Shown here: positions 4,882 through 5,122 of the stretch, piece after piece | Position numbering within the stretch: the stretch's first letter is position 1 | How the letters are laid out: every line of letters begins with the position of its first letter | NCBI GenBank assembly: GCA_001244265.2 | Contig: CDLV01000004.1 | Coordinates: forward strand, 1,860,001-1,924,000 | Source: Microbotryum violaceum | Lineage: Eukaryota | Reading direction: 5' to 3' | DNA: 64,000 nucleotides | Program-made: the position numbers and the translations under genes | Notes under the pieces: model-generated | Databases searched by the model: none | Seen by the model: the letters and a program-made list of their open reading frames with translations, nothing else | What the model was told of the DNA's origin: nothing

Positions 4882-5122
4882 TGCAAGGCCCGAGGCCTTT
4901 TGCCCGGGAGCCGGAAGAAGGTGATGGAGGGGCTTAGTTGGATAGCTTGCGCGCGCCTAGAACCTCTTGGCTTTCGCCAGCTGACTGCCTCGAGGTTTTA
5001 GGTGAGTGCACGAGTCCCCTATGTTTAGTATTGCAGCTGACTGCCTCGAGGTTCTAGACTTGAACTACGACTGTTTGATCCTGTCTATCGTTCTTGGAGC
5101 ACGGCTGCACGCGGTGCTTCCA
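4882..5122 (+). repeat. 5' LTR of gypsy element 1
   Basis: TGCAAG...CTTCCA termini, upstream of gag. Same internal architecture as the LTR at 23476-23699. Followed by ATTTTTTTTT. Left boundary is inferred by analogy. Confidence 0.6.

Follow-up and report, generated by a model that had tools for sequence, protein, structure and literature searches.

Two chromoviruses, E1 and E2, lie in the analyzed window, a stretch of 64 kb of Microbotryum violaceum DNA to which all coordinates refer. The LTRs of both carry the same module, in which a long hairpin buries a donor-like splice-site motif and the 3' strand of the hairpin is repeated a short distance downstream, with the repeat edges falling on intron-like boundaries. 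We tentatively read this module as a cis-acting LTR hairpin that controls the access of U1 and the spliceosome to an LTR donor in a foamy-virus-like manner; we hold this reading to be possible, somewhat short of probable. It builds on the observed layout, pairing and compensation, on the LTR limits, the intron signals and the concerted copies, and on a genomic one-arm form. The transcription start, the poly(A) site, U1 binding and splicing of the LTR RNA are what we infer from them.

The Two Elements and the Limits of Their LTRs

Both elements have the features of Ty3/gypsy chromoviruses, namely a TG..CA repeat, a chromodomain integrase and a purine tract before the 3' LTR. Their Pfam domains are protease, RT, RNase H, integrase, SH3_Tf2-1 and Chromo, and the best pol homologues are from Microbotryum species (75–82% identity), which identifies the host as an anther-smut-like basidiomycete. 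These domains and the LTR limits place both sites in chromovirus LTRs, in agreement with a preliminary description that had assigned them to gypsy LTRs.

The E1 5' LTR (4882–5122, + strand; 241 bp, TGCAAGG...GCTTCCA) lies upstream of gag (5215–6408, +) and protease (6278–7255, +). Its limits were taken from contigs of four public runs, which were compared with positions 4400–7040. Contigs of the flank end at 4881; a contig of a 3' LTR copy has a purine-rich, PPT-like loose end before 4881, which resembles the tract of E2; and one LTR contig stops at 5122, beyond which two unrelated sequences continue, behind 5123 and 5125. The E1 LTR therefore spans 4882–5122 with TG..CA ends. E2 extends from gag through the chromodomain to a terminal LTR, where the chromodomain ORF (23005–23436) is followed by the purine-rich tract and, directly after it, by the 3' LTR (23476–23699, +; 224 bp, TGTAA...TTACA). 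The 3' end of this LTR was set from its inverted termini and a weak alignment to E1, which 107 of 2000 shuffles equaled, and the end at 23699 is less certain than the E1 limits. No homology between E1 and E2 was found beyond the LTR ends, where 778 of 2000 shuffles aligned as well, and no second LTR copy of either element is present in the 64-kb window, which holds one LTR per element.

Two Ty1/copia copies (7049–11698, +, and 12614–17343, −) are nested between E1 and E2 in opposite orientation. They have a 1374-aa ORF and LTR-like direct repeats that are 98–100% identical, and the first copy interrupts the E1 protease region. Frames of non-LTR retrotransposons (RVT_1, zf-RVT) lie on both sides of E2 (23928–29717, +; 11851–12567 and 17226–18542, −), and the E2 5' LTR is missing at the start of the left one. 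A cluster of diverged direct repeats of families D1, D5 and D9, with units of 64–150 nt that are 61–91% alike, occupies 40573–42246. In runs X12 and X18 (organism B), the summed contig depth of 5023–5200 is 5–17 times that of 4934–5022; contig depth is a poor measure, and in organism B part of the right half of the LTR, together with the leader, may be far more repeated than the hairpin part.

Arrangement of the Hairpin and Its Repeated Strand

In E1, the invariant 5' strand GCGCGCG (4949–4955, +), which pairs with the donor-like GUGAGUG, is followed by an 11-nt co-varying arm, CCTAGAACCTC (4956–4966, +). The arm forms 11 pairs, one of them G-U, with its partner GAGGTTTTAGG (4992–5002, +). The repeated 3' strand consists of copy 1 (4979–5001, +), whose last 10 nt pair with the arm together with G5002, and copy 2 (5035–5057, +), for which 10 perfect pairs with the arm are possible; the 23 nt of the repeat show one mismatch at a period of 56. 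The donor-like AG|GTGAGT (5000–5007, +) lies within the stem, and TTGCAG follows at 5031–5036 (+).

In E2, GCGCGCG (23512–23518) and the arm CCTGGACACTC (23519–23529; both +) are arranged in the same way, and the arm forms 11 perfect pairs with 23555–23565. Copy 1 (23543–23564, +) and copy 2 (23601–23622, +) are identical at 22 of 22 positions with a period of 58. The donor-like AG|GTGAGC is at 23563–23570 (+) and TTGTAG at 23597–23602 (+). At both sites, the stem extends past the arm, where GCGCGCG pairs with GUGAG and the next letters, and the donor-like motif is thus within the helix.

The order reported earlier, with GCGCGCG, arm, partner, repeated 3' arm and spacer, was borne out by reading the coordinates of both sites, and folding placed AG|GTGAG in the helix, as had been claimed for the first hairpin. 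The inner stem that the two sites were said to share differs in register between E1 and E2 when folded. Within the 64-kb window, exact direct repeats of at least 16 nt at a spacing of 40–90 nt occur only at the E1 and E2 sites. The same is true of exact matches to GCGCGCGCCTRGA; with up to two mismatches, 7 matches were found compared to 4.4 expected.

Folding and Compensatory Changes

The 55-nt hairpins fold at −25.3 kcal/mol (z −3.5) in E1 and −27.3 kcal/mol (z −6.0) in E2, and for each of the four sequences folded, 0 of 200 shuffles folded as well as the real sequence. In an ungapped E1/E2 alignment of 61 columns, 30 of 30 cells pair across 15 stem pairs, of which three are changed on both sides and two on one side. 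Sliding the partners by 1–3 columns as a control left 18–53% of the cells paired, with 0–1 both-side changes. The observed covariation value was reached by 47 of 500 shuffles, and with two sequences only it cannot be significant. The arm differs between E1 and E2 at three of 11 positions, and all three differences are exactly compensated in both partner copies; the compensatory changes noted in the preliminary description are thus present, resting on two sequences.

A switch had also been proposed, in which pairing with the second arm would free the donor. The energy cost of holding copy 1 and the donor open is about 20 kcal/mol (from −46.6 to −24.0 in E1 and from −46.3 to −26.3 in E2), and because pairing of the arm with copy 2 is worse by about this amount, copy 2 does not really compete. 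In this folding model, an equilibrium switch is unlikely, and RNAs can differ by the presence or absence of the 5' strand of the hairpin.

A stable co-varying hairpin would also suit a structural RNA element of R/U3 that serves replication (strand transfer, dimerization or packaging) and has no part in splicing, GTGAG being kept through its pairing with the GC-rich palindrome. The base of the E1 hairpin is a palindrome, GCGCGCGC (4949–4956), and the repeated strand of E1 contains another, CCTCGAGG (4985–4996 and 5041–5052). Through these, two copies or two RNA molecules could pair; the E2 strand has only an interrupted palindrome (ACAC GA GTGT). An RNA starting at copy 1 folds at −27.6 kcal/mol, and direct repeats near R favor template switching, which would homogenize the copies and give a one-arm form. 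However, pure structure predicts that GCGCGCG and GUGAG covary, yet both are invariant, and we consider such a replication element rather unlikely. Retroviral LTR transcripts contain R-region hairpins, such as TAR and the poly(A) hairpin, and palindromic dimerization sites. The module resembles TAR and the poly(A) hairpin as a stable hairpin of the LTR transcript that is kept via compensating changes and has a GC palindrome, but it differs from them in that it contains a consensus donor and that its 3' strand recurs downstream.

Splicing Signals in the Module

Fungal spliceosomal introns have a GTRNGY donor and a CTRAY branch located 10–40 nt before a YAG acceptor. The spacer of 35 or 38 nt that had been described as a micro-intron has a good donor and a YAG, and this part of the claim stands; its limits do not, as the spacer lacks a branch consensus and has half the length of the three host introns mapped in the window. 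The unit of 56 or 58 nt, judged by its signals, is the better intron candidate. In E1, this candidate intron (56 nt, 5002–5057, +) comprises the spacer (5002–5034) and copy 2, and its branch CTGAC (5037–5041) lies 17 nt before the acceptor TAG (5055–5057). The E2 candidate (58 nt, 23565–23622, +) has the donor GTGAGC and the branch CTAAC (23606–23610), 13 nt before CAG (23620–23622). Both units agree with the fungal consensus for donor, branch and YAG, which three host introns in the window also informed.

The three host introns in the window belong to a gene at 52222–54139 (−) for a protein that is snRNA-activating complex subunit 3-like and 93% identical to a Microbotryum lychnidis-dioicae protein. 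Mapped by homology to the Microbotryum protein, they measure 80, 69 and 74 nt and use GTGTGT, GTGAGC or GTAAGT donors, CTGAC or CTGAT branches and CAG acceptors. The candidate introns are shorter than these three, and E1 has TAG as its acceptor, both of which weigh against the intron reading. Introns of 49 and 52 nt are reported for another basidiomycete (PMC5851062), and the version of 35 or 38 nt is far below both these lengths and the 69–80 nt of the host.

A pattern of AGGTGAG, 20–45 nt, CTRAC, 8–20 nt and YAG has two matches in a scan of both strands of the window, at the E1 and E2 sites, compared to 0.18 expected per window, and at least two matches appear in two of 100 shuffles, where it should be considered that the pattern was defined after seeing both sites and that the sites are homologous. 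Six AGGTGAG sites are present in the window, and two of the six have a CTRAC–YAG tail, which is found at 0.95% of all positions. In the E1/E2 alignment, the branch motif is four columns apart and was therefore kept or regained, not simply inherited. In both elements, the end of copy 1 coincides exactly with AG|GT and that of copy 2 with YAG, so that removal of the unit leaves the same sequence as deletion of one repeat unit. A structure that serves replication leaves this coincidence of the repeat ends with AG|GT and YAG, and the branch consensus, unexplained. In contigs of four public runs, two of them guessed to be RNA, neither 5001–5058 nor 5001–5037 is among the joints listed. Among the public runs found to contain the stretch, none is recorded as RNA.

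Conservation and Variation of the Module

By their proteins, E1 and E2 are deeply diverged, as the protease has 37% amino acid identity, the nucleocapsid region has 21%, and the capsid is not alignable. The hairpin core has 71% identity over 59 columns, with GCGCGCGCCT and AGGTGAG invariant, and of the spacers only the ends are common. The arrangement is older than the divergence of E1 from E2. The invariance of the donor motif and GCGCGCG is as expected if the motif must match the host U1 RNA.

Within each element, copy 1 and copy 2 are the same, even in linker letters that are unpaired and in a length that differs by 4 nt between E1 and E2, which points to copying during replication and not only to selection for pairing; the copies have evolved in concert since E1 and E2 separated. 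The T at 4998 is private to this E1 copy, and the family contigs read C (2816 of 2917.6 depth units in run X1), which removes the single repeat mismatch of E1.

In run X1, exactly one repeat unit is absent from a DNA contig, in which a joint leads from 4963 to 5034 with 20 letters between, a net change of −50 that follows a 6-nt difference in the arm region. Its depth is 74, compared to several thousand. Reverse transcription of a spliced RNA would be expected to yield such a contig, as would slippage, and the contig could also represent an older form. A second variant of the family retains GTGAGTGC and the 3' part of the spacer and differs between them. The arm duplication, whose loss from other members had been named as evidence against the module, is absent from this E1-family contig and from an intact outgroup element, L002, and is therefore dispensable; GGTGAG within a hairpin is retained.

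The existence of one-arm forms in the run X1 contig and L002, and the fact that tandem duplications are common in LTRs, would fit a neutral by-product, that is, a partial duplication made once by template switching with splice-like motifs arising by chance. This is very unlikely in our judgment, as the layout persisted while the capsids lost their similarity, conservation of the core exceeds that of gag, the copies within an element have not drifted apart, and the two matches of the intron pattern stand at homologous places against the expected 0.18.

L002 is an apparently intact chromovirus on a metagenome contig (2282–7255), with 122-bp LTRs that are 100% identical, a 5-bp target duplication (GAGAT), a single ORF of 1551 aa (2419–7074) and a 35-nt leader between LTR and ATG. 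It serves as an outgroup, its protease being 23% identical to that of E1. Its LTR, without the duplication, forms a minimal hairpin, GCCCTCACC..GGTGAGGGC, which folds at −15.7 kcal/mol and buries GGTGAG in the 3' arm. The LTR of another locus, L029, has 60-nt tandem units and a hairpin, CACCTCAA..TTGAGGTGAGG, again with GGTGAG in the 3' arm. L002 and L029 retain GGTGAG opposite a partner strand that has changed, which suggests that the motif itself is constrained and speaks against a purely structural role in replication. An invariant donor, an invariant or complementary partner and a co-varying neighboring helix are together the pattern predicted by a hairpin that masks a donor. The 3' LTR fragment of L029 (3718–3906), inside which the contig ends, has a hairpin that buries GGTGAGG and at least two of the 60-nt tandem units, in each of which a separate hairpin surrounds a motif resembling GGTAAG or GGTGTGAG.

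L002 and L029 come from a set of 80 distant chromovirus loci (28–39% identity), in which 5 of 136 GGTRAG sites on the sense strand lie in donor-burying hairpins (four distinct loci) and 2 of 305 on the antisense strand, both of the latter being the L002 palindrome. The full layout of E1 and E2 was found in none of the 80 loci by an exact-repeat scan and a covariance model; in the former, L061, L041 and L064 proved to be plain tandem repeats. An LTR-like pair is present in 19 of 53 loci of at least 4.5 kb, many of them being only assembly overlaps at contig ends. The covariance model found only its two training sequences in 571,727 bases, and scans of genome contigs and of viral contigs with a pattern of the module gave no match in either. 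In Rfam, to which the preliminary description had referred the module, no family matched at E1 or E2; the best E-values were 2.7–6.8, far below the gathering score, and none of these hits was on the module. No description of such an LTR module was found in the literature covered, which included passages of two papers on Microbotryum transposable elements and genomes and only a minority of subscription journals.

Pairing between the LTR End and the Leader

In E1, a block near the LTR end, GATCCTGTC (5077–5085, +), is complementary to the leader at 5133–5142 and gives a candidate self-primer or PBS-type duplex. A run of nine T begins one base after the CA of the LTR and is followed by the block partner GACAACGATC (together 5124–5142, +); no other complement of at least 9 nt was found between the E1 LTR and leader. 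The E2 block GGTCCTATGA (23641–23650, +) is homologous to those of E1 and L002. The LTR end CTTCCA, one base and a run of 8–9 T are common to E1, L002 and a further locus, L009. In L002 (block 2371–2382, T-run and leader partner 2404–2424) and L009 (4310–4318 and 4349–4374), block and leader are complementary as in E1 with other letters, and the block lies 21–45 nt before the LTR end. The L002 duplex has 14 bp (RNAfold), and the E1 and L002 duplexes show compensating changes around the same small internal loop. The T-run with CAG in L002 was considered as an acceptor for the LTR donor and rejected, as E1 has no AG there and the letters co-vary with the LTR block.

This pairing probably is the duplex related to priming in the clade, in which no PBS can otherwise be recognized. 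Should the RNA end immediately behind the block, the T-run could also base-pair with its poly(A) tail. SM-Tcn1 was noted to have a conserved T-rich leader in which no PBS is recognizable (PMC2864245), and the pairing of block and leader beyond the T-run may be relevant to the priming of Tcn1-like elements, so far without an explanation.

The duplex also bears on whether the 11-nt arm itself is a Tf1-type self-primer, forming the RNA 5' end with its complement as the PBS. In Tf1, the first 11 RNA bases pair with the PBS (PMC7175516), a length equal to that of the arm; E1 and E2 have Tf2-1-type SH3 and chromo domains; and a PBS recopied from the primer would explain the concerted change. The likeness to the Tf1/sushi "pretzel" thus consists of an 11-nt LTR sequence that is complementary to a downstream sequence, within the same broad chromovirus group. 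However, the PBS of Tf1/sushi stands directly after the CA of the 5' LTR, whereas the arm partners end at 5002 and 5057 in an LTR that ends at 5122. Both complementary copies here are within the LTR, 65–130 nt before its 3' end, and in E2 they also occur in a 3' LTR. It is the T-run, not a complement of the arm, that follows the CA, and the candidate priming duplex, with its compensating changes between E1 and L002, is formed by another block, 5077–5085 with 5133–5142, the latter separated from the LTR by the T-run. The LTR limits contradict the arm as self-primer, and as its partners are inside the LTR, a Tf1-type primer and PBS is an extremely unlikely explanation.

The block matters as well for the place of transcription start, since in Tf1/sushi the start is the 5' end of the self-primer, according to a preprint (10.1101/2022.12.06.519325). 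If E1 and E2 followed this rule, the module would be all U3 and would be present only at the RNA 3' end, which would count against masking of a donor. The module might then be a DNA promoter module of U3, where the repeats are binding sites or enhancers around a TATA-like stretch of the spacer and transcription starts downstream near 5077 or 23641. The conserved 3' part of the spacer (TATGTTTAGTA in E1; TATGTGTAGTA in the family variant) is the most AT-rich part of the LTR and lies about 50 nt upstream of the block, L002 has TATTTAG 42–48 nt upstream of its block, and tandem units of 56–72 nt occur in the chromovirus LTRs L029, L061 and L064. Like U3 tandem enhancer repeats, the module is a direct repeat in an LTR, with a period of 56 or 58 nt to which those of L029 and L061 are similar; unlike them, it repeats only a strand of 22–23 nt instead of a whole unit, this strand has its partner in an upstream arm and edges that match splice-site dinucleotides. 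Moreover, E1 and E2 face the same host factors, yet the arm and both partners differ at three of 11 positions and remain strictly complementary, which is expected for pairing of RNA or single strands and not for protein sites. The consensus for donor, branch and acceptor is also unexplained by a promoter, which we consider unlikely.

A Possible Hairpin Gate on an LTR Donor

In the donor-masking reading, the core would be a long hairpin that buries a consensus 5' splice-site and U1-binding motif, AG|GTGAGY, while the adjacent 11-bp helix is free to co-vary, and donor, spacer and copy 2 would act as one canonical short fungal intron (5002–5057; 23565–23622). A weak TATA-like stretch, which precedes the hairpin by a few bases in E1, E2 and L002, would place the transcription start inside the hairpin. 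In RNA that contains the 5' strand, as in the 3' LTR read through from upstream, the hairpin would form first and hide the donor; U1 would then not bind, and the RNA 3' end could be made. In RNA that starts inside the hairpin, as from the 5' LTR copy, the donor would be free, and U1 binding, removal of the spacer or both would silence the signals in the spacer and mark the RNA as spliced.

The model for this reading is the foamy viruses, in which 13 U3 nucleotides refold the donor of the R region and release polyadenylation (Schrom et al. 2013, PMC3694450). The type is defined by a donor in R, a U3-specific masking strand and a poly(A) signal downstream of the donor; pairing of the donor with an upstream strand is found in the predicted folds of E1 and E2. 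The likeness lies in a donor within the LTR, in an alternative fold by which nucleotides just upstream of the start decide U1 access, and in the proposed purpose of distinguishing the 5' from the 3' LTR copy. Unlike foamy viruses, the case here is a fungal chromovirus retrotransposon, known from sequence alone, with a stem of 18 positions that includes the co-varying part of 11 bp; a branch and an acceptor lie 56 or 58 nt downstream in the LTR, in the form of a copy of the upstream strand.

A further step would make the module a self-regenerating LTR intron, which we regard as decidedly unlikely. The first letter of copy 1 would be the transcription start, where C|A at 4978|4979 and 23542|23543 forms the left edge of the repeat. 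The RNA 5' end would lack the masking arm and be spliced (removing 5002–5057 or 23565–23622), whereas the 3' LTR copy would keep the arm and stay unspliced. As copy 2 repeats the exon end, strong-stop minus-strand DNA made from the spliced 5' end would be exactly complementary to copy 2 of the 3' LTR and the sequence following it. The strong-stop DNA would land on copy 2 and recopy the spacer and copy 1, and the intron would be passed on; mis-landing on copy 1 would give a one-arm LTR. In the offspring, copy 2 would derive from the parental copy 1, which would explain the identity of the copies even in unpaired letters; the model would also account for the exactness of the repeat edges, for concerted evolution and for the one-arm form as a by-product. 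If true, the element would be spliced and gain whatever the host grants to spliced RNAs while still passing its intron on. A hairpin-gated donor of this kind predicts the junctions 5001^5058 and 23564^23623, with transcription beginning at 4979 and 23543.

Significance

Retroelements face two problems, as identical LTRs must act differently at the two ends of the RNA and an element that is copied from RNA loses its spliced introns. Basidiomycete yeasts depend on introns for good expression, and their RNAi is fed by transposon RNAs that are poorly spliced (PMC5851062). If true, a hairpin-gated LTR donor whose acceptor repeats the exon end would solve both problems compactly, and a principle that has so far been shown for foamy viruses would then hold in fungal retrotransposons as well.
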